A stretch of 64,000 bases of DNA from a virus (IMGVR_UViG_2541047850_000005:3554-67553); one strand, 5' to 3'. Shown: positions 6,323-45,717, counted from the first letter of the stretch. Numbers and translations: made by a program. Notes: generated from the letters alone by a model not told the origin.

Positions 6323-8356
6323 TTACTTAACCTGGTGACCAGGTTTAGCACCAGCATCCGGGCTTAACAGGAAGATATCTTTCCCACCAGGACCAGCAGC
6401 CATCACCATGCCTTCTGAGATACCGAAACGCATTTTACGCGGAGCCAGGTTAGCCACCATAATGGTGTGACGACCAATCAGTGCCTGTGGGTCTGGATAA
6501 GCAGAACGAATGCCGGAGAAGACATTACGCTTTTCCCCACCGAGATCCAGTGTCAGACGCAGCAGTTTGTCAGAGCCTTCAACAAACTCCGCGTTTTCAA
6601 TCAGCGCCACACGCAGGTCAACTTTGGCGAAGTCGTCAAAGGTGATGGTTTCCTGAATCGGGTCGTCAGCCAGTGGGCCAGTTACCGGTGCGGCTGTGGC
6701 TTTCACTTCTTCTTTGGATGCTTCCACCAGTGCTTCCACCTGTTTCATATCGATGCGGTTATACAGCGCCTTGAACGGATTCACTTTGTGGCCCAGCAGC
6801 GGTTGCTGGATACCATCCCAGGTCAGTTCTGTATTGAGGAATGCTTCTGCGCGCTCGGTCAGTTTCGGCAGTACCGGTTTCAGGTAAGTCATCAGCACGC
6901 GGAACAGGTTAATGCCCATAGAGCAAATCGCCTGCAGATCGGCATCGCGACCTTCCTGCTTCGCCACCACCCACGGAGCCTGTTCATCGACATAGCGGTT
7001 AGCCAGGTCAGCCAGTGCCATGATTTCACGGATAGCTTTACCAAATTCGCGGCTTTCCCATGCTTCGCCAATCACTTCAGCGGCATCAGTAAAGGTTTTG
7101 TACAGTTGCGGGTCAGCCAGTTCGCTTGCCAGCACGCCGTCAAAACGCTTGTTGATAAAGCCTGCATTACGGGAGGCCAGGTTAACCACTTTGTTCACGA
7201 TATCGGCATTCACTCGCTGAACGAAATCTTCCAGGTTGAGATCGATATCATCAATGCGCGAAGAGAGTTTCGCAGTGTAGTAGTAACGCAGGCTGTCGGC
7301 GTCAAAATGATTCAGCCAGGTGCTGGCTTTAATGAACGTGCCGCGAGACTTGGACATCTTCGCACCGTTCACCGTCACATAGCCATGAACAAACAGGTTG
7401 GTCGGCTTGCGGAAGTTGCTGCCTTCCAGCATGGCAGGCCAGAACAGGCTGTGGAAGTAAACGATATCTTTACCGATGAAGTGGTACAGCTCGGCGGTGG
7501 AGTCTTTCTTCCAGTATTCATCGAAGCTGGAGGTGTCGCCGCGTTTGTCGCACAGATTCTTGAAGGAACCCATGTAGCCAATCGGCGCGTCCAGCCAGAC
7601 GTAGAAATATTTGCCCGGCGCGTTCGGAATTTCAAAACCGAAATAAGGGGCGTCGCGGGAGATATCCCACTGTTGCAGGCCAGATTCAAACCACTCCTGC
7701 ATTTTATTTGCCACCTGCTCCTGCAACGCACCGCTGCGGGTCCATGCCTGCAGCATTTCGCTGAAAGAAGGCAGATCAAAGAAGAAGTGTTCGGAATCAC
7801 GCATTACCGGCGTAGCACCAGAAACTACCGATTTCGGCTCGATCAGTTCAGTCGGGCTGTAAGTCGCGCCGCAGACTTCACAGTTATCGCCGTATTGATC
7901 TGGCGCTTTACATTTAGGGCAGGTGCCTTTTACAAAACGGTCCGGCAGGAACATGCCTTTTTCCGGGTCGTATAACTGAGAGATGGTGCGGTTTTTAATA
8001 AAACCGTTCTCTTTCAGGCGAGTATAAATAAGCTCGGACAACTGACGGTTCTCTTCGCTGTGCGTCGAGTGATAGTTGTCATAGCTGATGTTAAAGCCTG
8101 CAAAATCAGTCTGGTGTTCCTGACTCATTTCGCCAATCATCTGTTCCGGTGTGATACCAAGCTGCTGTGCTTTCAGCATGATCGGTGTGCCGTGGGCATC
8201 GTCGGCACAGATGAAATTAACCTCGTGGCCGCGCATTCGCTGGTAACGAACCCAGACATCAGCCTGGATGTGCTCCAGCATATGGCCGAGGTGGATTGAG
8301 CCGTTAGCGTACGGCAGCGCGCACGTCACCAGAATTTTCTTCGCGACTTGGGTCAT
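6323..8356 (-). CDS. metG: methionine--tRNA ligase (MetG), E. coli-type
   Basis: 677 aa from [41 protein letters not shown]…; class I aaRS HIGH/KMSKS (KMSKS present), C-terminal tRNA-binding domain; from memory near-identical to E. coli MetG. The ORF track's 43-residue N-terminal extension (to 8485) is rejected. Confidence 0.95.
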
Positions 8357-8513: not shown

Positions 8514-9614
8514 ATGAGCGAGTCCAAATCGCCGGATGCCCTGAGAGCAATGGTAGCCGGTACGCTGGCTAATTTTCAGCACCCAACCCTGAAACACAAC
8601 CTGACTACGCTTAAAGCGTTACACCATGTTGCGTTGATGGATGACACACTGCATGTCGAACTAATCATGCCTTTCGTGTGGAATAAGCCTTTTGAAGACC
8701 TGAAAGAGCAATGTAGTGGTGATCTGCTCCGTATCACTGGCGCAAAGGCTATCGACTGGAAGCTGTCGTACAACATTGCCACGCTTAAGCGCGTCAAAAA
8801 CCAACCAGGCATTAATGGCGTTAAGAACATTATCGCCGTCAGCTCAGGCAAGGGCGGCGTTGGTAAATCCTCCACGGCGGTAAACCTGGCACTGGCGTTG
8901 GCTGCTGAAGGTGCGAAAGTTGGTATTTTGGATGCCGATATCTACGGGCCATCAATTCCAACCATGCTTGGCGCGGAAAACCAACGTCCAACCTCACCGG
9001 ACGGTACTCACATGGCACCGATTATGTCTCATGGACTGGCAACCAATTCAATTGGTTATCTGGTAACTGACGACAATGCGATGGTGTGGCGTGGTCCGAT
9101 GGCGAGCAAGGCGTTAATGCAGATGTTGCAGGAAACTCTATGGCCTGATCTGGACTATCTCGTTCTCGATATGCCGCCGGGTACTGGTGATATTCAGCTG
9201 ACGCTGGCGCAGAACATTCCTGTAACTGGTGCTGTTGTGGTAACTACGCCGCAAGATATCGCGCTGATCGATGCGAAGAAAGGCATTGTGATGTTCGAAA
9301 AAGTCGAAGTGCCGGTACTGGGTATCGTCGAAAACATGAGTGTGCATATTTGCAGTAACTGCGGTCATCACGAGCCAATTTTTGGCACCGGTGGCGCACA
9401 GAAACTGGCCGAGAAATACAACACGCAGTTGTTAGGCCAAATGCCACTTCATATCTCTCTTCGTGAAGATCTGGATAACGGAACACCAACCGTTATTAGT
9501 CGTCCAGATAGCGAATTTACGGCTATTTATCGTGACCTTGCAGATCGCGTTGCTGCCCAAATGTATTGGCAAGGTGAAGTAATACCTGGCGAAATCGCAT
9601 TCCGCGCAGTGTGA
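8514..9614 (+). CDS. apbC: Fe-S cluster carrier ATPase ApbC/Mrp
   Basis: 366 aa with Walker A SSGKGGVGKSSTAVNLA and CxxC (CSNCGHH) motif; divergent from metG as in the E. coli chromosome. Confidence 0.93.
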   Translation: MSESKSPDALRAMVAGTLANFQHPTLKHNLTTLKALHHVALMDDTLHVELIMPFVWNKPFEDLKEQCSGDLLRITGAKAIDWKLSYNIATLKRVKNQPGINGVKNIIAVSSGKGGVGKSSTAVNLALALAAEGAKVGILDADIYGPSIPTMLGAENQRPTSPDGTHMAPIMSHGLATNSIGYLVTDDNAMVWRGPMASKALMQMLQETLWPDLDYLVLDMPPGTGDIQLTLAQNIPVTGAVVVTTPQDIALIDAKKGIVMFEKVEVPVLGIVENMSVHICSNCGHHEPIFGTGGAQKLAEKYNTQLLGQMPLHISLREDLDNGTPTVISRPDSEFTAIYRDLADRVAAQMYWQGEVIPGEIAFRAV

Positions 9615-23003: not shown

Positions 23004-23597
23004 CTAAGCAGCCTTCTTTGATGCTCTTTTTTTTCTGACCACATTCGCAGGATCATACCCTCCCAGACTTTTCATGACGTCCAAAGGGATCTTGCTTATA
23101 GAGTGCCCAGCGTCCTGACAGAATCCTCGAAAAACAACGAGCATACTGCCACCGGGGTTGATGTTTACTTCTACCTGACCCAAATTGACGTCAGGCTCGA
23201 CAAACGCTACGCGGCCACCAGACAGAATAATCGTCTCATTCGCATACTCTGTTGCACGCTCATACCACTTTGTATCGAGGGATTGAGGAATTAGCATCAC
23301 TGTTGTAACTCCGCGAGCCTGCTCACGTATAGCCGCATCAATCCAGGGGGAGATTTTGGAGTAGGGTGGATTGAGGAAGGCAATTGTACCTGGCTGCCCC
23401 CATTCAGATTTCAAAGCATCGCGCTCAACGCCTATGAAAATAGGCAGCTTTGCATTGTCCTTGTTGCAGGCAACGTCAACATCAAATGTCACTCCAAGAT
23501 AACGTTGAATGGCAGAAAACAGCCAATCAGGTGTTCTCCAGAGATCACGAAGAGAGTTGTCGCGCTTTCGCTGTTTGATTTTTTCGGCTGCAATCAT
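23004..23597 (-). CDS. phage-type Dam-like N6-adenine DNA methyltransferase
   Basis: 197 aa with NPPYS motif (FLNPPYSKISPW) and the short single-domain architecture of phage N6A methyltransferases. Confidence 0.7.
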   Translation of the reverse strand: MIAAEKIKQRKRDNSLRDLWRTPDWLFSAIQRYLGVTFDVDVACNKDNAKLPIFIGVERDALKSEWGQPGTIAFLNPPYSKISPWIDAAIREQARGVTTVMLIPQSLDTKWYERATEYANETIILSGGRVAFVEPDVNLGQVEVNINPGGSMLVVFRGFCQDAGHSISKIPLDVMKSLGGYDPANVVRKKRASKKAA

Positions 23598-25798: not shown

Positions 25799-26443
25799 CT
25801 AATGAACGGTCACTCGGCCACAGAACCGGTTTTCTATCTTTTCTACAGCGTTATCTAGCACTCTCATCACTGATCTGGCTCTTGCTTCAACCGTGCGATA
25901 TCGGTTGGAAACGACGAAGGTTTGCAGATCCCCCCTTTGCGGATGCAGGTGAATTTTTGTCAGTTCCCCGCACATCAACGCATCAATACGAGCGACATAC
26001 AGACGGTCTAATGATGCTCGTTGTGATCGCAAGTAATCTCGCTCTGAGAGAGCGACTCCCGGGCGTAGGCCAGCAATGGCGTTAAAGTTTGAAATAGCAG
26101 TTTTGTGGCAAAACTTTTCGATATCGAGGGCTAACTCAATACATCGATCTTCATTGGTATGGCCGACCAAATCCAACGTGTAGGCCATAACATCAGCAGG
26201 TGTGCGATCGATAACAAAGCCTTCAACACCACGCGTAAGTAGCTCTATATGCTTTGCTATTTCCATTTGAATCTGAAGCCGCTCATATAGAGGCATAGAC
26301 TCACCTACTCGAACACCGAGTCGGCTCATCAAACTTCCGACACCAGCATCCACGTAAGGGATTCCGTAATGTTTGTCGATATATTTTGCCAGGGTTGTTT
26401 TCCCACTGCCCTGAGCACCAGTGATCCCAATCCGGTAATCCAT
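25799..26443 (-). CDS. P-loop NTPase, putative (deoxy)nucleotide kinase
   Basis: Walker A GITGAQGSGKTTLAKYI and a DRT motif; sits in the thyA-folA precursor cluster. Confidence 0.5.
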   Translation of the reverse strand: MDYRIGITGAQGSGKTTLAKYIDKHYGIPYVDAGVGSLMSRLGVRVGESMPLYERLQIQMEIAKHIELLTRGVEGFVIDRTPADVMAYTLDLVGHTNEDRCIELALDIEKFCHKTAISNFNAIAGLRPGVALSERDYLRSQRASLDRLYVARIDALMCGELTKIHLHPQRGDLQTFVVSNRYRTVEARARSVMRVLDNAVEKIENRFCGRVTVH

Positions 26444-26919
26444 TACGACCTTCTGTATACGATCTGCGAAAAGCCAGGCTCTTCCTCGCTGGCTCGTTGG
26501 GTAAAAACTGTTTCAACAGGCACAAAGCCTAAATTACGCATCATGCTTGCCGGGAAGAATGCATCGGCGTTTGGCACATCAACGCCGATGTGGGAGAGCC
26601 AAATCTCTTCAACATGCGGCATGAATAGCGAGTAAATTTGTTCCCCGCCAATCACCCACACAGGCTCTGGTAATCGCAACACATCATCCACACCAGCAGG
26701 GTAGAATCCATTTGGTACAAAGCCATGAGAGCGCGTCAAAACGAGGTTATGACGCTCTGGAAGAGGGCGTTTGAGACTTTCCATCGTTTTACGCCCCATA
26801 ACGACAGTGGCGTTTTTGGTGAGTCTCTTAAATAGCTTCAGATCGGTAGAACAACGCCAGGGCAGTTCGTTCGCTATGCCGATCTCATAGTTACGGCCAA
26901 CAGCAGCTATCATCTTCAT
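26443..26919 (-). CDS. folA: dihydrofolate reductase
   Basis: MKMIAAVGRNYEIGIANELPW…VVMGRKTMESL…LVLTRS matches the DHFR fold signature; 158 aa. Confidence 0.8.
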   Translation of the reverse strand: MKMIAAVGRNYEIGIANELPWRCSTDLKLFKRLTKNATVVMGRKTMESLKRPLPERHNLVLTRSHGFVPNGFYPAGVDDVLRLPEPVWVIGGEQIYSLFMPHVEEIWLSHIGVDVPNADAFFPASMMRNLGFVPVETVFTQRASEEEPGFSQIVYRRS

Positions 26920-27332
26920 TTGCTCACCTCATAGATGACCGGTCTATGATGAGAGTCAGCTAAAGCGGCACGGAGTCGAGGATCGTGCACCAGCGCAGCG
27001 ATAAGCAGATCGCCTTTATGCTCCGCTAATGTGCGCTTAATATGCTTCTCATAACTGGTGCCATTCGGTACGAGATGAAGCCAGTCGTAATCAACGCCAA
27101 AATCTTTCAGCCATCGTTTAGTGGGCGCTTCAAGAGTTTCAGAGCGGCTACTGATAAGCACCACTTCAGCCCCTGAGCGAGCAAAACCACGCAACATACG
27201 GCTGGTGGGGAAAATGAGTTCATCACCGGCAATGAGCTGGTCTGCATCCGTGTCAGGTACAGATTTACGATGGCTGGTATTTGCCAGCACACCTTCAATT
27301 TCGCATAAGACATACATACCTCTTGCCATATC
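26916..27332 (-). CDS. hypothetical protein (possible nucleotide-metabolism enzyme)
   Basis: ORF trimmed to MARGMYVL…; coupled between thyA-like and folA-like genes; no confident motif. Confidence 0.35.
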   Translation of the reverse strand, partial: DMARGMYVLCEIEGVLANTSHRKSVPDTDADQLIAGDELIFPTSRMLRGFARSGAEVVLISSRSETLEAPTKRWLKDFGVDYDWLHLVPNGTSYEKHIKRTLAEHKGDLLIAALVHDPRLRAALADSHHRPVIYEVSK

Positions 27333-28434
27333 ACACCGCCACTGGAACCTTGATCCACGGTAGAGGGTCATAGCCAAGAATCAGAATATCGTCCCATTTG
27401 AAATCATCCAGCTCAGACCATTCATGAGGGAAAATAACGACCGGATCTGAATGCTCTGGAGCCTGTCGTTTCATTAGCTCACACACACCTTCCATGTGGT
27501 TGTTGTACAAATGCACGTCAAAGCCAAAATGCACAAATGCACCGGCCATGTGACCCGTAATCTTCGCGAGAAAATGAGTGAGAATGCCATAGCCAGCAAT
27601 ATTGAATGGCATACCAACAAAAGTGTCTACGCTACGCTGTACGAGGCAGGAGTTGAGGATGCGTTTGGGGATTCCAAGTTCATCCAGTTCAGTTTCAGTA
27701 ACACTGCCGTCCATCTCCAGATCGTATAGCATCTTGGTGTAGATAGACTCATAACCGAGGCGACTGTGTTGAAGACCAATGTCAGTTGCCATCGTTAAAC
27801 GGGTTTCAAAATCAAGCTCACGACTCCACAAAGAGAAGACAAAGTGGCAAGGTGGCAGTTTCATATCCTCAAGCTCGCCTACGTTCCATGCGTTAAGCAT
27901 GATGCGACGATCGGTAGGGTTCGTGCGCAGTGTGTCGACAATACGCTGTAGCTGATCGATTTCACGGGACAGCACTACGCGATCTTCACTGATACCCAGG
28001 TATCCCTCGACTTTGTACCCGCGTTCACGGAAAGTAGCGATCTTGCTCAGATATTCACTATGGCTCACGATGCGGGTATCTTCCCATCGACGCCACTGCT
28101 TACCGTAAACCGGCCCCAAATCGCCATTCTCATCGGCCCATGCATCCCAAATCTTAACGCCGTTATCCTTAAGAAATTGGATGTTGCCCGTGCCTTTCAG
28201 ATACCACTCAAGTTCGACAAGCAGTGGTTTAAGATTTACCGCCTTTCCAGAAATAAGCGGCACAGTCCCACCAGTAAGCATGTAGTAAGAGGGAACGTAG
28301 CAGGTGCTTAAAGTACCAGTGCCTGTGCGATCATCAGTCTGCACGCCGCTTTTAAGCACCGTCTCAATAACTTTTGCATACGATGCGTTTGTTACCTGAC
28401 CGTTCGTATGCTCACGATTCAAAAGGAGTGACAT
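27331..28434 (-). CDS. thyA: thymidylate synthase (ThyA family) with two internal insertions
   Basis: DRTGTGT, WADENGDLGPVYGKQWR (as in E. coli ThyA), catalytic PPCH, MPFNIAGY, GFDVHLYNNH; 367 aa against about 264 for E. coli ThyA. Confidence 0.8.
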   Translation of the reverse strand: MSLLLNREHTNGQVTNASYAKVIETVLKSGVQTDDRTGTGTLSTCYVPSYYMLTGGTVPLISGKAVNLKPLLVELEWYLKGTGNIQFLKDNGVKIWDAWADENGDLGPVYGKQWRRWEDTRIVSHSEYLSKIATFRERGYKVEGYLGISEDRVVLSREIDQLQRIVDTLRTNPTDRRIMLNAWNVGELEDMKLPPCHFVFSLWSRELDFETRLTMATDIGLQHSRLGYESIYTKMLYDLEMDGSVTETELDELGIPKRILNSCLVQRSVDTFVGMPFNIAGYGILTHFLAKITGHMAGAFVHFGFDVHLYNNHMEGVCELMKRQAPEHSDPVVIFPHEWSELDDFKWDDILILGYDPLPWIKVPVAV

Positions 28435-28507
28435 AAAACCTCACGAAGATAAGTAATCAATTATTTATCACGTGAGTTTACATTCATTGATAACACAAGA
28501 CCAGATA

Positions 28508-28535
28508 GATAAAAAATGGTGGCCATAGGCCACCA
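28508..28535 (-). terminator. rho-independent terminator-like hairpin
   Basis: TGGTGGCCTATGGCCACCA followed by TTTTTT on the minus strand, downstream of the 28602 stop. Confidence 0.5.
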
Positions 28536-28601
28536 AAAAGAATAGTCGCTCCAGAGTTTTATACGCAAATCAAATATACATTAGTAGATAATCACCTACA
28601 A

Positions 28602-29471
28602 TTATTTTTTGATCATTCCGTACATTGCTGAGGCTTTAGCTTGCTCAACAAAGGAGGATAAATCGACATCACTATAGGTTGGAGACTTCAGAATCTTTCC
28701 ATCGGAAATTCGAAAACCGATCATCTTATCGGTGCCATCAGCATGGCGGAATCCCAGATCTGAAGAGTCGTATTTGCAGTTGGCCACAGCCTGGCGACGT
28801 TCCTCGACATCAGCAGGCCATAATTTTGTCATGTTAGACCGATGAATTTCGCCAACCAGCTCGACTACATTGATACCGAGGAAATCAGCCAGTCGATAGG
28901 TCATCATGCACGCCACATAGATTTTGTTCATGACACGGCGCAGTTCCTGAATCAGCTCAGAATCCTTAACAGTCTTGTTCTCAAGTTTATCTGCCAGCTC
29001 TTCGAGCATACATGACGCCTCACGAGCTTCCTGAAATGGCATTGCCATATCATCGAAAACAGTGTTACCGGGCACAAAAATTGTCTGCATAAAGCGATCA
29101 ATGCTCTGTTCCTGCGTGTAATAGGTCATGCCGGTAGAAATACCACCTTTGATGGCGACCATCGTACCAACACCAACGTATAAAAAGTCGGCCATTGCAT
29201 CCAGCAGTTGCTCAATATCCCCATTCATTGCAGCTGGAATACCTTCCACTACAGCTTCTTCATGAATCAGGCTTGCACGGAGACGAAGCAGCTCTGGTGT
29301 CGGCATAACGCGTCTCGGATGCTGGAAGAGTTCATGAAACTGATCGACCATCTTGTAAATACTTTCAGTAGCTACACCATGACCTTCATGCAACTCATAT
29401 GGTTCTGGCTTAAATCCAATGAGACGATCGGTGGCAAGTTTCAGGTGGTCAGTCAGTTTGGTAAAGTTCAT
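28602..29471 (-). CDS. hypothetical protein, possibly all-alpha NTP pyrophosphohydrolase (MazG-like)
   Basis: ORF 28602..29669 trimmed to MNFTKLTD… because the upstream part overlaps the nrdB 3' end; Glu-rich helical motifs; weak assignment. Confidence 0.35.
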   Translation of the reverse strand: MNFTKLTDHLKLATDRLIGFKPEPYELHEGHGVATESIYKMVDQFHELFQHPRRVMPTPELLRLRASLIHEEAVVEGIPAAMNGDIEQLLDAMADFLYVGVGTMVAIKGGISTGMTYYTQEQSIDRFMQTIFVPGNTVFDDMAMPFQEAREASCMLEELADKLENKTVKDSELIQELRRVMNKIYVACMMTYRLADFLGINVVELVGEIHRSNMTKLWPADVEERRQAVANCKYDSSDLGFRHADGTDKMIGFRISDGKILKSPTYSDVDLSSFVEQAKASAMYGMIKK

Positions 29472-29548: not shown

Positions 29549-30694
29549 TTACAGGTCTGCAAACTGGCTTAGAGAAGCCTTGTCCACGGTAGAATCGATC
29601 TGACCTACCAGATATGTGCTTTGCTCTGCCTCTTGTGGTGCAATTTGCAGTGTGTCGGTTAACAACCACTTGTTCATCCAGACCAGCGGATCGGTGGTAA
29701 CCTCTGGAAATAAAGCCTTCAGGCCAAGACGATTCATAGCCAGATTGGTGCGGTATTTTACATAGGTCTTCAAAATATCCGCGTTTAAACCAATCATCGA
29801 ACCGTCTTTGAAGAGATACTCGGCCCAGTTCATTTCTTGTTCGGCGACTGATTTCATGGTGTCGTAAATGACGTTTTCTTCATCAGCAGCAATCTCTTTC
29901 CACAATAAACCTTCGCGACCGGTACGCATGAAGCGGATCATGCGTTCAGTTCCTTCGCAATGCAGAGCTTCATCACGGGCAATAAAGCGCATAATTTTGG
30001 TGTTACCCTCAAGCAACTTCCGTTCGCCAAAGGCAAACGTACATGCAAAACTTACATAGAAACGGATCGCCTCAAGCGCATTAATGGACACCAACGTGCG
30101 GAAAAGCTGACGGTGCAAAGGGTATGGCTCCCAGCCATATTCATTTACGTACAGACGTTCAAACTCCTTCTCACCTAACGACTGGCGCTCGCAGGTCATC
30201 CCATAAAGCCTGTCATATTCAGCAGAGATACTGATCGCTCGGTTGATGATTTCTTCATCCGTAACAATACCGTCAAAAACAATGCTCGGATCGTCCACCA
30301 TGCCACGAATAATGTGGGTGTAGCTGCGGCTATGGATAGTCTCAGAGAAAGACCATGTTTCAACCCACGTTTCCAGTTCAGGAATAGAGATAAGCGGCAG
30401 CAGCGTTGCATTTGGGCTACGTCCCTGAACTGAATCGAGTAACGTTTGATAACGGAGATTGCTCAGAAAAATGTGACGTTCGTGGTCCCGCAGCTTCGTG
30501 TTGAAGTCGATACGATCGCTCGAAATATCAACTTCTTCCGGCCGCCAGAAGAAAGACAATTGACGTTCAATCAACTTTTCAAAATCACGGTATTTTTGCT
30601 GATCGTAACGTGCCACGTTGACAGATTGTCCGAGGAACATAGGCTCTTTGGTTGCATCATTAGCACCCAAACGGAACGTTGAATATGACATGTG
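29549..30694 (-). CDS. nrdB: ribonucleotide reductase class Ia beta subunit (NrdB)
   Basis: …[20 protein letters not shown]…[11 protein letters not shown]… collinear with E. coli NrdB; start set at MSYSTFRL. Confidence 0.9.
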
Positions 30695-30796: not shown

Positions 30797-33112
30797 TCAG
30801 ATTTTGCAGGCTCCGTCGCACTCATCTTCTGGCTCGACGGCTACAGCTTGCGTCAGTGGATTCTGCGGTTCGTCGTCATCACGCTTTCCTGCCCCATCTC
30901 TGGTGTTGTGGTAGTAAAGCGTTTTAACTCCCATCTTGTAGGCGAGAAGCAAATCTGACAGTAGCGTCATCATTGGGACTTTATCGTCTTCAAAGCGAGA
31001 AGGGTCATAGTTGGTATTGGCCGAAATAGCCTGGTCAAAGAACTTCTGGATGATCGCCACCTTTGTCAGATAGCCGCGGTTGTCCGGCATATCCCACAGG
31101 TATTCATACTGTTCCTTCAGTTTTTCAAACTCAGGCACGACCATCTTAACGATGCCGTCCTTAGAAGATTTCACCGACACCGGTCCACGAGGCGGTTCGA
31201 TGCCGTTTGTGGAATTAGTGATCTGGCTGGAAGTCTCGCATGGCATTTGTGCCGTCAGTGTGGAGTTGCGAAGACCGTATTTTGCAATACGTTCACGCAG
31301 TTCTTCCCACGGCATCTTTAACTCAAAGTTGGTTTCGCCACTTTCGTCTAATGAAGAACGATAGTGGTCGATCGGCAACTGACCAATTGCGTACTTGGTC
31401 TGCTCAAACCAGTCACACTCACCTTTTGCTTCAGCAAGTCGGCAGCTGGCATCAAGAAGGTAATACTGGATAGCTTCGAACGTTTCATGCACCAGTTTAT
31501 TGCCAGCGGTATCAGAATAACGAACGCCATTCTTTGCCAGGTAATAAGCAAAGTTGGTTACACCGATTCCCAGGCTACGACGAGCTTTGGCAGGCACTTC
31601 AGCTGCCTCCATCGGATAGTCTTGATAATCCAGTAACGAATCCAGTGCAGCAACGGCATAGAACGCCACCTCTTTAAGAGACTCCAGTGAACGGATGGCT
31701 CCGAGGTTAAAAGCGGATAAAGTGCAAAGCGCGATCTCACCGTTCGGGTCGTCGGTAAATGCCAGTGGACGAGTGGGTAGAGTGATCTCCATGCACAGGT
31801 TTGACTGGCGAACAGGTGCAAGAGCAGGAATGAAAGCGCCATGCTCATTAATATGATCGACGTTCGCAATATAAATTCGGCCAGTGGACGCTCGTTCCTG
31901 CATCAGAGATGAAAACAGCTCAATGGCAGGCACTGACTTCTTGCGAATTGAATCATCGGCTTCGTATTTATGGTACAGCTTTTCAAACAGATCTTGGTCT
32001 GTGAAAAAGGCTTCGTACATATCAGGCACATCATGCGGGCTGAACAGAGTGATGTTCTCGCTTCTGACGAGTCGACGGTACATCAGACGGTTACTCATGA
32101 CGCCGTAATCAAGATGGCGAACGCGGTTTTCATCGATACCACGGTTATTTTTCACCACCAGCAGACTTTCAACTTCAAGATGCCAGATCGGGTAAAACGC
32201 TGTTGCTGCGCCACCACGAACACCACCTTGCGAGCAAGATTTAACAGCAGTCTGGAAATGCTTCAGGAATGGAATAACTCCGGTATGGGTGGCTTCACCA
32301 TTGCGGATCTCACTGCCCAGCGCACGGATACGGCCAAAACCAATACCAATTCCAGCACGACGTGAAACGTAGTCGATAATTGCGGCTGAAGCTGCACTAA
32401 TACCTTTCAGACTATCGCCAGACTCAATCAGCACACAACTGGAGAACTGACGGGTTGGAGTACGGACGCCGACCATGATTGGTGTGGGCAGAGACAGTTT
32501 GAACGTACTTGTAACGTCATAGAAACCTTTGACCATCTCCATACGTGTTTTGCCAGCGCAGTCGTCTTCCCAATTCTGGAACAGACACATGCCCACCAGC
32601 ATATAGATATGTTGCGGCCCCTCATGAATCTCACCAGTAACACGGTTTTGAACGAGGTATTTGCTTTGCAACTGCGCCGTAGCTGCATAGCCAAAAAGAT
32701 CGTCACGTTTCGGCTTAATGTAATTGCCGAGTTCTTCGATCTCTTCAAACGAATAATGTGTCAGCAAATCCTTGTCATAAACGCCCTTGTTAACGTTCTT
32801 GACAATGTGTTGGTAGAAGTTCGGATAGTCGTAACGACCGAAGGCATCTTTGCGGATTTTAAAAATGTTCAGGCGGGCAGCCACCTGCGAGTAATTTGGT
32901 GCATCTGGTGAGATCAAATCAGCGGCAGATTTAACCAAAGCCTCATGCAACTGGCTGGTGGTAATCCCATCAAAAATGCTGGCCGCAGCTCCCATTGCTA
33001 CAGCGGATGCGCTTACACCACGAATGCCTTCTACGCCATACATTACGACGCGGTTGTATTTTTCTTCGGATAACGGCTCTGTTTGGCCGTTACGTTTTAC
33101 GATGCTTATCAT
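30797..33112 (-). CDS. nrdA: ribonucleotide reductase class Ia alpha subunit (NrdA)
   Basis: 771 aa; …LPTPIMVGVRTPTRQFSSCVLIE…SCSQGGVRGGAATAFYPIWHLEVESLLV… collinear with E. coli NrdA; normal length, so no intein. Confidence 0.92.
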   Translation of the reverse strand: MISIVKRNGQTEPLSEEKYNRVVMYGVEGIRGVSASAVAMGAAASIFDGITTSQLHEALVKSAADLISPDAPNYSQVAARLNIFKIRKDAFGRYDYPNFYQHIVKNVNKGVYDKDLLTHYSFEEIEELGNYIKPKRDDLFGYAATAQLQSKYLVQNRVTGEIHEGPQHIYMLVGMCLFQNWEDDCAGKTRMEMVKGFYDVTSTFKLSLPTPIMVGVRTPTRQFSSCVLIESGDSLKGISAASAAIIDYVSRRAGIGIGFGRIRALGSEIRNGEATHTGVIPFLKHFQTAVKSCSQGGVRGGAATAFYPIWHLEVESLLVVKNNRGIDENRVRHLDYGVMSNRLMYRRLVRSENITLFSPHDVPDMYEAFFTDQDLFEKLYHKYEADDSIRKKSVPAIELFSSLMQERASTGRIYIANVDHINEHGAFIPALAPVRQSNLCMEITLPTRPLAFTDDPNGEIALCTLSAFNLGAIRSLESLKEVAFYAVAALDSLLDYQDYPMEAAEVPAKARRSLGIGVTNFAYYLAKNGVRYSDTAGNKLVHETFEAIQYYLLDASCRLAEAKGECDWFEQTKYAIGQLPIDHYRSSLDESGETNFELKMPWEELRERIAKYGLRNSTLTAQMPCETSSQITNSTNGIEPPRGPVSVKSSKDGIVKMVVPEFEKLKEQYEYLWDMPDNRGYLTKVAIIQKFFDQAISANTNYDPSRFEDDKVPMMTLLSDLLLAYKMGVKTLYYHNTRDGAGKRDDDEPQNPLTQAVAVEPEDECDGACKI

Positions 33113-42250: not shown

Positions 42251-43081
42251 TTATTTCACTGTAATGAAAGGAGTGTTAGCCCCTTGAGTCATGTACTGCG
42301 GTAACTGGCCATTCCATTTATTGATGGCTTCCAGCTCCATAACGTTCGGGTTTTGACGCAGAGCTTCACCGCGCAGACGAATGGCGTCTGCTTCTGCTTG
42401 CGCACGAGCACGGATAGCATCAGCTTCACCATTAGCCTGTTCACGTAGCATATTCGCCTCAGCTTTACGTTGTTCAACTTCCTGCTGACGTTGCAGAGTA
42501 CGCTGGTTAGCCGTTACTTTGGCGTTGATAGATTCAATGACGGTTTTTGGGTAATCAGGCTTTCCAACCCATGACAGGCTCAGTACCTCAATACCAACCG
42601 GAGACATCTCTTTCTGAATATCTTTCAGTGCGTTGTCCAGCAATTGTGCCTTACCACCGTCGATAAATGAGTCAGTGGTCATACGGCTGGCCAAACGGTT
42701 TAGAGAGTCGGCAATTTTCTGACGCAGATCTGATTCGGTGATATCGTCTACGCCTTTGCGATAGGTCTGGAACACCGTCGTTACCTTGTCACGATTAACC
42801 AGATACGCAACGCCAATTTTGTGACCAATAGCAGTACCGTCACTCATCTGGAATGTGAACGGCTCGTCGTAGGTCTTCATTTGTTTGAAGGTCGGGAATA
42901 CGTAAAGTTCGGTGTTAAGACCTGTCCATTGGCGACCAACGCCAACTACTTCACCAATCCCTTTGTCTTCACCTAATTTGTTTACTTTGATGCCAACGTA
43001 TCCAGGCTCCACGCGATCACAGCCAGTAAGACCCATTGTGCAAACAGCGGCCACGATCACTGCCAGTAAACCTTTCTTCAT
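42251..43081 (-). CDS. SPFH/band-7 domain lipoprotein
   Basis: Lipobox LTGC after a signal peptide; band-7-like core and C-terminal coiled coil (EADAIRARAQAEADAIRLRGEAL). Confidence 0.6.
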   Translation of the reverse strand: MKKGLLAVIVAAVCTMGLTGCDRVEPGYVGIKVNKLGEDKGIGEVVGVGRQWTGLNTELYVFPTFKQMKTYDEPFTFQMSDGTAIGHKIGVAYLVNRDKVTTVFQTYRKGVDDITESDLRQKIADSLNRLASRMTTDSFIDGGKAQLLDNALKDIQKEMSPVGIEVLSLSWVGKPDYPKTVIESINAKVTANQRTLQRQQEVEQRKAEANMLREQANGEADAIRARAQAEADAIRLRGEALRQNPNVMELEAINKWNGQLPQYMTQGANTPFITVK

Positions 43082-43084
43082 TAC

Positions 43085-43285
43085 TTACTTCTCCTTCGAA
43101 TTGATGAGTGACTTTAGAAACTTACGACCTGCAATAAACCCGATCACAGGAGCGCCAAAAGCAACGATGATTCCAAGCATTACGGCAATGTCGCTTTTAG
43201 TAGAGATCAGCGACGGAACCAGCAAACAGTAGATGAAAACTACAGATAGACCTGTAACTACTGCCATAAGATAGAGTTTGATCAT
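43085..43285 (-). CDS. small two-TM membrane protein (66 aa) coupled to SPFH gene
   Basis: Two hydrophobic helices; stop 3 nt before the SPFH start; motif-2 element at 43314-43336. Confidence 0.45.
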   Translation of the reverse strand: MIKLYLMAVVTGLSVVFIYCLLVPSLISTKSDIAVMLGIIVAFGAPVIGFIAGRKFLKSLINSKEK

Positions 43286-43344
43286 GTGTTTTCCTATGTG
43301 GTTGTTATGCGAAAATAATAAGTAAGTGCTTATGTATTTTCAAG

Positions 43345-43372
43345 AGATAAAAAAGGCGTCCTGTGGACGCCT
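43345..43372 (-). terminator. rho-independent terminator
   Basis: Minus-strand AGGCGTCCACAGGACGCCT + TTTTTT directly after the RecA-like stop. Confidence 0.7.
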
Positions 43373-43377
43373 TGTGT

Positions 43378-45717
43378 TTACTCTTCTACTGACTCGGTGG
43401 GGTTGTCTTTTGCTCTTCGGTCGTCGATTGCCTGCAAAGCCGCAATGATTTCAGCCAGTGGCTTCTCCCGATACATCTCGACGATCTGCGATTTGGTGTA
43501 TTTCTTGTCACCAATTTCAACTCGCCCGCTGGCGTTCTTTGGCAGGTATCCTTCTTCCAGCATGTACTCGACGAGCGATTCGATAACGTCGAGGCCACGA
43601 GTAGGATCGAAGTAGAATTTCCAGGTGCATTTGCCATACGGTGGTGCAACTTTGTTTTTGATGCATTCTGCGCCTACGTCCTGGCCGATCTTCTCTTTAC
43701 CATCCTTCATCACCGATGCACCAAGACGGATACGTACAGAAGCGTAGAACTTCGGTGAATCTCCACCTGGCGACGTAGTAGGGTCGCCAAACATTACACC
43801 GATTTTTGTGCGAACCTGATTCAAGAAGATGATGCAGGCGTTGTATTTGCGTGCCCACAAAGCCAGAGTAGGGAAGTTCGCACTTGTCGCACGAGCCAGT
43901 GCCGTATTGTCGTTCATGTTTAGCTGATCTTTGTCTTTGGCAGTGCCTTCAGCCATCTTTTCGAACTTCTCGGCTTTGGAGTTCGGAACCATAGACGCAA
44001 GTGAGTCAGCCACGATACAGATAGGTGCTGATTCAGGAATAAGCTCTTCATCACGTACCAATTTAAGAATTGTGCCGATCAACTCTACAGAGTCTTCGAA
44101 GGTATCAGGCTGCTTGTATACCCACTGACCGTCATCCTCATCTGCGTTCAGGCCATTGGCTACAGCCAGGCCAACGTCAAAACTGTTTTCATGATCGAGG
44201 AATACCGCCAGACCATCTTGTTTTTGAGCGGAGATCATCGCTGCTGTTGCAAGGAATGTGTTGTGGCTGATAATCCCGTTAGACCAGAAAGAGTGTGTTT
44301 CCGGCATCGCTACGTCGAACGTTGGTGCTTCACCTTCCTCAATAGCCACGACTTCGTCGTAGAATAAGTTAGAGCCAATTACCGCTGCCAGTTGTGCAAA
44401 CAGATGCTCGTTAAAACGATTCTTTCTGCCAATGAAGGAGACATAGATTTCTCGCAGTTTGTCTATTCCGACACGATCGCCGCGGCCAATAACGTGGTCT
44501 ACCAGAGCGTAGTCTTCACGGGTGGTCTTGGTGAGCGACTCGTAGAGTGATTTCACTAAGCCGCTGATGTGCGGAACATAGCCTGAGTAAGTGCGGTCAA
44601 AACCAATGTCCCGTTTGGTTGCCACTGATAAACGTGCCGGAGATTCGAAACCAATCGTTGACAGAAAAAGGTCGTAATTAGAGCCACTGAATGACAGCCG
44701 GTAATATGTATTTTCATAACCCGCGACGTGTTTTTCAGAGATAGTTGACGTAATCCCCAGATTCAGGAGCATGAGGCGAATTTGCTGTAGCAGCAGCCCA
44801 CTCGCGCTCACAACCTCAATGCAGCGACCACCATTGACGTGGCATTCCAGCTCAAAGTAGCCGCGAAGGAATGCAATTTGAGCCTCGCTATTGGCGCGAC
44901 GCACACTCAACGGAACCTGCTTGCCAGCAGCTTTCTCATACTCCAGACCATATTCTTTAAAAAGCAGCGAACGCACCTCTTTGCTAAACAGCACATGGTC
45001 TTCCGAGCCGTTATGTTTTCTCGTAACTGGCATCTTGTCTGATACCAGCGAAATGAGGCGGTAGTACTCATCCTTGATGAATGGATCTGTGTTAGAAAAA
45101 TGCACAGAATTTTCAGAGGCCACGTATCCGTCAGCAATTAAATAGCCCATCAGTTTTGCGATATTGGCATCCAAGTGCTGATCGCCGAATTGATGTGTGC
45201 CAACCATTGAAGGAATCGTGTCGCCTACACTGATTTTTTCAGCATACCGCCAGACGATATTGCCTAAGTCGTCAACCACACGAATTGGGTGACGGAACGT
45301 AGCCTCGATGTAACCCCCTGATGCCAGCTTAATGCGCTTGAATTTGCGACGGTTGTTCCATGTCAGGTGTGAGGTTTTCTCTATCACGCCATTTTCATTG
45401 ATGAGTCCAACGTTATGCTCTACATCGCGAGTAGTGCATGTTGCTTTGTGCCCCTCAATCTCAAACAGTTCTTTCACTGTTACCATTCCACGCTCCGTCA
45501 GCAGCATGGTGTCTGCGGTAACACATTTCCCCGCACTTGGAGGACCGAATACTTCGACGATACGACCACATGGGAAACCGCCATCGTAACGACCGGAAAT
45601 CGCTTTGTTTAACGGAGGAAAGCCTGTGTCAATCCAATGAGTTACTTTCTGAATTTCGTCGTTGCTACCGATTTTCTTTTTCAGAGCAAGTGCCAGTGCG
45701 GATTTTCCTTTTGCCAT
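43378..45717 (-). CDS. recA: RecA-family recombinase interrupted by an intein
   Basis: N-extein ends …VFGPPSAGK, C-extein resumes TFLATAAM…FLNQVRTKIGVMFGDPTTSPGG…FYASVRIRLG (collinear with bacterial RecA); 779 aa total, 357 aa after predicted splicing. Confidence 0.85.
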   Translation of the reverse strand: MAKGKSALALALKKKIGSNDEIQKVTHWIDTGFPPLNKAISGRYDGGFPCGRIVEVFGPPSAGKCVTADTMLLTERGMVTVKELFEIEGHKATCTTRDVEHNVGLINENGVIEKTSHLTWNNRRKFKRIKLASGGYIEATFRHPIRVVDDLGNIVWRYAEKISVGDTIPSMVGTHQFGDQHLDANIAKLMGYLIADGYVASENSVHFSNTDPFIKDEYYRLISLVSDKMPVTRKHNGSEDHVLFSKEVRSLLFKEYGLEYEKAAGKQVPLSVRRANSEAQIAFLRGYFELECHVNGGRCIEVVSASGLLLQQIRLMLLNLGITSTISEKHVAGYENTYYRLSFSGSNYDLFLSTIGFESPARLSVATKRDIGFDRTYSGYVPHISGLVKSLYESLTKTTREDYALVDHVIGRGDRVGIDKLREIYVSFIGRKNRFNEHLFAQLAAVIGSNLFYDEVVAIEEGEAPTFDVAMPETHSFWSNGIISHNTFLATAAMISAQKQDGLAVFLDHENSFDVGLAVANGLNADEDDGQWVYKQPDTFEDSVELIGTILKLVRDEELIPESAPICIVADSLASMVPNSKAEKFEKMAEGTAKDKDQLNMNDNTALARATSANFPTLALWARKYNACIIFLNQVRTKIGVMFGDPTTSPGGDSPKFYASVRIRLGASVMKDGKEKIGQDVGAECIKNKVAPPYGKCTWKFYFDPTRGLDVIESLVEYMLEEGYLPKNASGRVEIGDKKYTKSQIVEMYREKPLAEIIAALQAIDDRRAKDNPTESVEE
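44260..45525 (-). mobile_element. intein with LAGLIDADG homing endonuclease, inserted in the RecA P-loop
   Basis: Begins CVTADTMLL, contains ATFRHP (TxxH), LMGYLIADGYV and FLRGYFELECHV, ends GIISHN followed by Thr; about 422 aa. Confidence 0.85.

Follow-up and report, generated by a model that had tools for sequence, protein, structure and literature searches.

A probable canonical thymidylate synthase with two inserted modules among the nucleotide-precursor genes of an SSU5-like phage-plasmid

Introduction

The locus described here encodes a ThyA-type thymidylate synthase (TS) that is 103 aa longer than its Escherichia coli counterpart, which raises the question of what the additional residues are and whether they alter the reaction of the enzyme. 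The gene lies in a viral window of 64,000 nucleotides, which is the whole stretch of DNA that was analyzed, and it has already been annotated as a TS gene. A preliminary description, made from the sequence, had recognized two internal inserts and suggested that they may change the substrate scope, for example to a pyrimidine hydroxymethylase-like activity.

The window DNA is 100% identical to that of Escherichia phage PhiR41_1, an SSU5-like phage-plasmid. The thyA DNA itself exhibits 100% identity with the annotated TS gene of PhiR41_1 and 77.7% identity with the TS gene of Salmonella phage SSU5, and the window is therefore considered to derive from an SSU5-like phage-plasmid. The features of the gene are as follows.

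27331..28434, minus strand: thyA-type TS gene, 367 aa, ATG start, stop codon at 27331..27333
28390..28434, minus strand: N-terminal extension of 15 aa (residues 1-15), relative to E. coli ThyA, by alignment
28090..28140, minus strand: 17-mer WADENGDLGPVYGKQWR (residues 99-115), identical to E. coli ThyA 83-99
27970..28080, minus strand: insert 1 (residues 119-155), 37 aa in place of 3, net +34
27844..27855, minus strand: PPCH motif (residues 194-197) with catalytic Cys196 (C146 of E. coli ThyA) and His197 (H147)
27655..27825, minus strand: insert 2 (residues 204-259/260), 56 aa in place of 5, net +51
27334..27351, minus strand: C-terminal lid KVPVAV (residues 362-367), KAPVAI in E. coli

Identity and architecture of the gene product

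The thyA product matched the Pfam family PF00303 (Thymidylat_synt) at 2.4e-79 with 266.7 bits (cutoff 24.3), the NCBIfam TS equivalog TIGR03284 with 222.7 bits (cutoff 108.35), and PHROG 160, 'thymidylate synthase'. These matches, together with the PPCH motif and the WADENGDLGPVYGKQWR segment, which includes W99 and Y110 (W83 and Y94 of E. coli ThyA), bear out the earlier recognition of a ThyA homolog with intact core motifs. In a HMMER comparison with PDB chains, the protein aligned with E. coli ThyA (264 aa; PDB 1AN5 and 2TSC) in three collinear blocks (query residues 18-118, 156-203, and 261-367), and the core of the phage-plasmid TS is 46% identical to this enzyme, which has neither the N-terminal extension nor insert 1 or insert 2. 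The blocks delimit inserts of 37 and 56 aa, in good agreement with the approximately 40 and 55 aa of the preliminary description. Its count of two inserts holds as well, although the total of about 100 extra residues that it assigned to them was too large: the inserts supply approximately 85 of the 103 aa in excess, and the rest consists of the 15-aa N-terminal extension and 3 scattered residues.

A monomer model was built with AlphaFold2 (AF2) on a 58-sequence alignment, with a mean pLDDT of 94.7, a pTM of 0.92, and block means of approximately 91-98 across both inserts, while N-terminal residues 1-5 were predicted with low confidence (pLDDT <50). The TS fold is present in this model, as indicated by a Foldseek comparison with E. 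coli ThyA (TM 0.94 on target).

Catalytic residues and relation to phage hydroxymethylases

The phage-plasmid TS was aligned with E. coli ThyA, the TS of Salmonella phage SPN3US, T4 gp42 (a dCMP hydroxymethylase), and SPO1 gp29 (a dUMP hydroxymethylase), the last three taken from annotated phage records. It agrees with E. coli ThyA at each of the 22 catalytic and ligand positions that were checked. C196 and H197 of the catalytic motif are present, together with four arginines that bind phosphate (R36, R176, R177, and R267) and the proton-relay pair E74 (Glu58) and Y110 (Tyr94), as are the folate-site residues K64, W96, W99, L193, D270, G274, and F277, in addition to the terminal KVPVAV. N278 occupies the uracil-specificity position, N177 in E. 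coli, and is Asn rather than Asp, while H197 corresponds to H147; positions 177 and 147 separate dUMP-acting from dCMP-acting members of the family (PMC8670742). Some substitutions beside conserved residues are specific to the SSU5-like clade, with ELEWY for ELLWF, ISGK for TTK, and V265 for Y164, and these count against a canonical enzyme.

The characterized hydroxymethylases gp42 and gp29 have in common with the phage-plasmid TS the superfamily, the fold, the Cys nucleophile, and the equivalents of Glu58, Tyr94, Arg166, Ser167, Asp169, His207, and Tyr209. However, both exhibit non-TS residues at L143, H147, Q165, and F176, both are devoid of the TS lid, and gp42 has Asp at position 177. Neither protein has an insert at either site, and the additional residues that bring gp29 to 383 aa are found at its C-terminus. 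The C-terminal segment of TS closes over the folate for hydride transfer, whereas T4 dCMP hydroxymethylase is without this segment and its folate site is more open (PMC5175136). The identity of gp42 and gp29 to the phage-plasmid TS is only about 19-27% over partial alignments, and the BLASTP E-values of the phage-plasmid TS (1e-64 with E. coli ThyA and 3e-81 with SPN3US TS, compared with 5e-5 for gp42 and 0.023 for gp29) place it nearer to TSs than to these hydroxymethylases. The structure prediction and the alignment with ThyA and hydroxymethylases that the preliminary description had proposed returned a TS fold and the TS lid, and the residues at L143, H147, Q165, and F176 are likewise those of a TS and not of a hydroxymethylase. 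Judging from these residues, the enzyme would be a folate-dependent TS of unchanged chemistry that converts dUMP and 5,10-methylene-THF to dTMP and dihydrofolate (DHF).

Insert 1 and the chromosomal enzymes of Burkholderiaceae

Insert 1 occupies the loop that connects the QWRxW segment to the next helix and contains a conserved RG[YF] motif. In the AF2 model it is predicted to form a beta-arm composed of strands 117-124, 141-146, and 152-159 together with two short helices within residues 125-137. A phmmer search aligned the region with PDB 3V8H without a break across the insert (4e-16), as 3V8H possesses an insert of approximately 34 aa between QWRxW and IDQ, and the insert was also confirmed by alignment with six chromosomal sequences. 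On the basis of these alignments, insert 1 is homologous to the insert of the housekeeping ThyA in Burkholderiaceae.

The structure 3V8H represents ThyA of Burkholderia thailandensis (BTH_I1680; 323 aa; NCBIfam NF010393/PRK13821), which carries insert 1 and whose gene is listed among the putative essential genes (PMC3561365). When a 97-aa piece of 3V8H was used as a query, the large protein database gave fragments only, and full-length genes were taken from genome contigs. Of 600 stretches that matched the pattern and were examined, 428 encode a relative, and complete alignments were made for six genes. The 323-aa architecture with insert 1 was identified in the chromosomal ThyA of Burkholderia, Paraburkholderia, Trinickia, and Pseudoduganella. 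The chromosomal 323-aa ThyA of Burkholderiaceae and of some Oxalobacteraceae has insert 1 in common with the phage enzymes.

The resemblance is limited to this module. Insert 2 is missing from the Burkholderiaceae ThyA in the six genes aligned in full, and B. thailandensis ThyA has two inserts of its own, one of 12 aa in the small domain and a C-terminal one of 11 aa, while Asn occupies the W83 position. Its core is only 34% identical to that of the phage-plasmid TS, which scores far below the NF010393 equivalog cutoff (137.8 bits compared with 576). Insert 1 without insert 2 was found in the sequences P0054 and P0066 as well as in the Burkholderiaceae enzymes. Eukaryotic TSs carry an insert in the same loop as insert 1 of the phage TS, the second of their own inserts, but it is shorter (alignment; PMC6479881).

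Insert 2 and its distribution

Insert 2 is located at the tip of the central beta-hairpin that leads from the Cys196 strand to the QRS(x)D strand, about 10 residues, by sequence, from active-site residues at either hairpin end. The AF2 model predicts a three-helix module with helices at 209-225, 231-242, and 247-253. The insert of Lactobacillus casei and Enterococcus faecalis TS (approximately 50 aa) is positioned earlier in the chain, between WDEWA and GDLG, and nothing is found at the beta-hairpin tip in L. casei, E. faecalis, or eukaryotic TSs. No PDB sequence covering insert 2 was detected by profile, by fragment, or with the insert alone, for which phmmer gave no match even at E<=10, and Pfam searches with each insert alone returned nothing significant. 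A limited full-text search of the literature yielded no description of these inserts and no enzymatic or genetic data on a TS that carries insert 2.

A profile of insert 2 alone matched 12 of 1.84 billion representatives; this search is of low sensitivity and is no measure of family size. Ten of these matches were scanned with Pfam (P0025 and P0131 were outside the scan); the nine best by E-value proved to be complete or fragmentary TS sequences, and the tenth, P0130, has no Pfam domain. Among the profile matches, insert 2 was seen in no identified protein family other than TS. The mean net charge of the module is approximately -3, a value that makes nucleic-acid binding unlikely. A comparison of 49 insert-2 bearers revealed a module of 28-64 extra residues. 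R212 and P256 are invariant in these sequences and D251, R258, and L260 are nearly so, and the module is anchored by the patterns '..E....R' and 'LD...IP.R.L'. Each bearer also has insert 1, with at least 11 extra residues.

Insert 2 is present in the whole SSU5-like clade, which comprises elements of approximately 100-120 kb from Escherichia, Salmonella, Klebsiella, Raoultella, Enterobacter, Providencia, Morganella, and Xenorhabdus. A shorter form exists in many jumbo-phage TSs, of which that of SPN3US was aligned in full; its presence in the Erwinia phages Machina and Wellington, in CR5, and in 201phi2-1 was deduced from tblastn match length or fold similarity, and by the same measures the TSs of Lak megaphages probably carry it as well. 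It also occurs on metagenomic contigs with clear phage gene content. Among the TSs found, insert 2 is restricted to those of phages and phage-plasmids, where it is common. As to whether the inserts are shared by other phage ThyA proteins, a point raised in the preliminary description, both are found throughout the SSU5-like clade and in many jumbo phages.

Selection on the inserts and relatives in jumbo phages

Substitution rates were obtained by comparing thyA with its counterparts in SSU5 and Klebsiella phage pJN2-26, and are given as pN and pS instead of dN/dS because synonymous sites are saturated. Synonymous divergence (pS) is 0.57-0.95, while pN is 0.03-0.25 in the inserts and 0.06-0.12 in the core. 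The pN of the inserts is comparable to that of the core while pS is saturated, and both inserts are therefore under purifying selection.

The jumbo-phage TSs (SPN3US, Machina, Wellington, Cronobacter phage CR5, Pseudomonas phage 201phi2-1, and metagenomic relatives) lie in a phage genomic context and resemble the phage-plasmid TS in the positions of both inserts, in the invariant Arg and Pro, and in the 'LD..IP.R.L' anchors. BFVD models of these proteins superpose on the phage-plasmid TS model with a TMq of 0.83-0.87, compared with 0.68 for E. coli TS. Their inserts are shorter, and are only 12-30% identical to those of the phage-plasmid TS. In SPN3US TS and P0040, the core shares 78% and 81% identity with E. 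coli ThyA, respectively, and the inserts therefore sit on, and are kept on, essentially canonical enzymes. In a neighbor-joining tree calculated on core columns, which carries no support values, insert-2 bearers are not monophyletic and E. coli ThyA is placed beside SPN3US and P0040. It is possible that the pattern seen for SPN3US (L006:5046-6062) and P0040 arose from recombination between phage and host thyA with the inserts kept, or from transfer of the inserts.

Gene neighborhood

The thyA gene is surrounded by genes that are related to nucleotide metabolism.

29549..30691 and 30797..33112, minus strand: class Ia ribonucleotide reductase (RNR), beta subunit nrdB and alpha subunit nrdA, respectively, from open reading frames and PhiR41_1 annotation, upstream of thyA in the same orientation
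28602..29306, minus strand: MazG-like NTP pyrophosphohydrolase gene, annotated as 234 aa (phrog_671 2e-33; PF01503 9e-7)
28517..28535, minus strand: terminator-like hairpin TGGTGGCC-TAT-GGCCACCA followed by a T-run, approximately 80 nt upstream of the thyA start, from a consensus scan only
26916..27329, minus strand: HAD / PNKP-phosphatase-like gene, 137 aa, starting 1 nt after the thyA stop
26443..26919, minus strand: dhfr, 158 aa (PF00186 2.9e-34), overlapping the HAD-like gene by 4 nt and the kinase-like gene by 1 nt
25799..26443, minus strand: P-loop nucleoside/nucleotide-kinase-like gene, 214 aa (AAA_28 2e-9; weak kinase-family matches)

The order nrdA, nrdB, MazG-like gene, terminator-like hairpin, thyA, HAD-like gene, dhfr, and kinase-like gene is the same in SSU5 and pJN2-26. 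The hairpin, with an 8-bp GC-rich stem, separates the MazG-like gene from thyA, and the junctions from thyA through the HAD-like gene and dhfr to the kinase-like gene measure 1-4 nt. The upstream hairpin and these short junctions and overlaps suggest a separate, translationally coupled thyA-HAD-dhfr-kinase unit. No conserved thyA-HAD-dhfr operon is found around thyA of SPN3US.

The dihydrofolate reductase (DHFR) encoded two genes downstream of thyA is 89% identical to the SSU5 DHFR, DfrA51, and the element probably carries a dfrA51-like gene. DfrA51, a recently described phage-plasmid determinant, made E. coli resistant to trimethoprim upon expression, which shows it to be an active DHFR (PMC12217456). 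A co-translated DHFR fits a TS that produces DHF. The HAD-like protein matches PF25109 at 6e-5, which is below the curated cutoff, and Pnkp1 in PDB 4xrp at 7e-6, and the position of its gene is conserved in SSU5 and pJN2-26. The start of the MazG-like gene varies, with 234 aa in PhiR41_1 and 289-291 aa in SSU5 and pJN2-26 (the SSU5 version would extend to 29471 in the window). Its product has a weak PDB match (E ~1e-3) to the Deinococcus MazG-like protein DR2231, which we take to be a MazG-like dUTPase, and by analogy the gene might supply dUMP to TS.

The PhiR41_1 annotation, in which most genes are 'hypothetical', lists one TS gene and no glycosyltransferase-type hypermodification gene, nor a 5-hmdU DNA kinase or another gene for excluding the canonical base, with MazG-, HAD-, and kinase-like genes flanking thyA; given the many 'hypothetical' entries, this listing is a weak indication. 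A Dam-type N6-adenine methyltransferase gene is located at 23004..23597 on the minus strand (PF05869 1.5e-37), and a second annotated 'DNA modification methylase' is found outside the window, at 43063..43731 of the phage record PV340561. These genes would predict adenine methylation and not the replacement of thymine.

Discussion

The gene very probably encodes a canonical ThyA-type TS of a phage-borne structural subclass, situated in the nucleotide-precursor block of an SSU5-like phage-plasmid. In this enzyme, two modules would have been added to an otherwise canonical TS core, namely the beta-arm of insert 1 and the three-helix module of insert 2 at the hairpin tip. The small-domain insert of L. 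casei and E. faecalis and the inserts of eukaryotic TSs provide a precedent for large surface insertions that leave the reaction unchanged. As for the role of the inserts, our guess is that they could stabilize the protein or serve as surfaces for contact with other proteins, perhaps the co-translated DHFR or further enzymes of dNTP synthesis. This is suggested by their phage restriction, by purifying selection, by the conserved anchors, and by the precedent of the C-terminal region of TS, which is believed to offer an interaction surface for DHFR (PMC5175136).

Several other explanations can be considered. It is very unlikely that the protein is a dUMP or dCMP hydroxymethylase, or another pyrimidine-modifying TS homolog, in which the folate site is remodeled by the inserts, the exocyclic methylene intermediate is resolved by water in place of hydride, and modified thymine appears in the DNA. 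TS-fold enzymes do perform such chemistry in SPO1, T4, and other phages, SPO1 gp29 is also a long protein, and the MazG-like, HAD-like, and kinase-like genes that flank thyA loosely resemble, by analogy, the accessory set of the SPO1 5-hmdU pathway, which reportedly consists of a dUTPase/dTTPase, a dTMP phosphatase, and an hmdUMP kinase; for this pathway, the SPO1 record displays annotations of gp29 and gp22.1 only. However, the complete set of TS-type residues, the lid, the distance from gp42 and gp29, and the adjoining DHFR gene speak against the altered scope that had been suggested for this enzyme. Hydroxymethylation yields THF, so DHFR is not required for it (PMC5175136). Even more improbable is that the inserts are functionless relics of mobile elements, whether mini-inteins, intron-derived segments, or remnants of homing endonucleases. 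Introns and inteins are known to reside in phage TS genes, as exemplified by the td intron of T4, and other SPO1 genes contain one intron and one intein. Nevertheless, both inserts are confidently folded onto the core in the AF2 model and are under purifying selection, and insert 1 is seen in the crystal structure of a mature enzyme (3V8H). An intein or a group I intron is ruled out, as the thyA frame is continuous, Rfam gave no match in 26800..29000, Pfam gave PF00303 only on the whole protein and no intein or endonuclease domain, and inserts of 37 and 56 aa could not accommodate a HINT (intein) fold and are without a His-Asn end; the preliminary description had likewise seen no intein signatures.

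A further possibility, doubtful at present, refines the preferred explanation and does not replace it. The chemistry would remain canonical, while insert 2, together with insert 1, would constitute a phage-specific module that docks TS to a dNTP complex (DHFR, RNR, or kinase), binds its own mRNA, or evades a host factor. The occurrence of insert 2 only in TSs of phages and phage-plasmids is consistent with such a module, as are the purifying selection that acts on it, its invariant Arg and Pro anchors, and its retention on cores that closely resemble the host enzyme. The translational coupling of the thyA, HAD-like, dhfr, and kinase-like genes and the DHFR surface at the TS C-terminus point in the same direction, and a role in contacts within the T4 dNTP synthetase complex has reportedly been proposed for surface inserts of T4 TS. 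However, the length of insert 2 and its sequence vary so widely between clades that a tolerated elaboration would fit equally well, and the module is acidic rather than basic, which disfavors the binding of mRNA. The more specific proposal that insert 2 is an adaptor that docks TS to DHFR, kinase, or RNR, or that uncouples TS from host control or defense, appears rather unlikely; if it were true, a new functional surface would have been added to a very well studied enzyme.

With a canonical TS as the preferred reading, the locus carries little weight for pathway discovery, as the protein is almost certainly an ordinary TS that provides dTMP to a phage-plasmid with its own DHFR, RNR, and nucleotide-handling enzymes. 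Insert 2 nonetheless marks a structural subclass, widespread but restricted to phages, of an enzyme that is a classic drug target, and no structure of this subclass has been solved. Moreover, the TS-DHFR pair of SSU5-like phage-plasmids is clinically relevant, since the DHFR (DfrA50/51) confers trimethoprim resistance.

Two additional observations concern other parts of the window. A full-length methionyl-tRNA synthetase gene at 6323..8356 on the minus strand (tRNA-synt_1g 4e-166, in addition to a tRNA-binding domain) is divergent from an ApbC/Mrp gene at 8514..9614 on the plus strand, and with this pair the phage-plasmid carries a copy of the metG-apbC locus of the chromosome. The copy shares only about 90% identity with E. 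coli chromosomes but 95-99% with 216 records, was matched at 222 places on E. coli plasmids, and has a local GC content of 0.51 compared with approximately 0.46 around it. Finally, the GC content falls to 0.35 in 58001..62000, compared with approximately 0.46 in the rest of the window.
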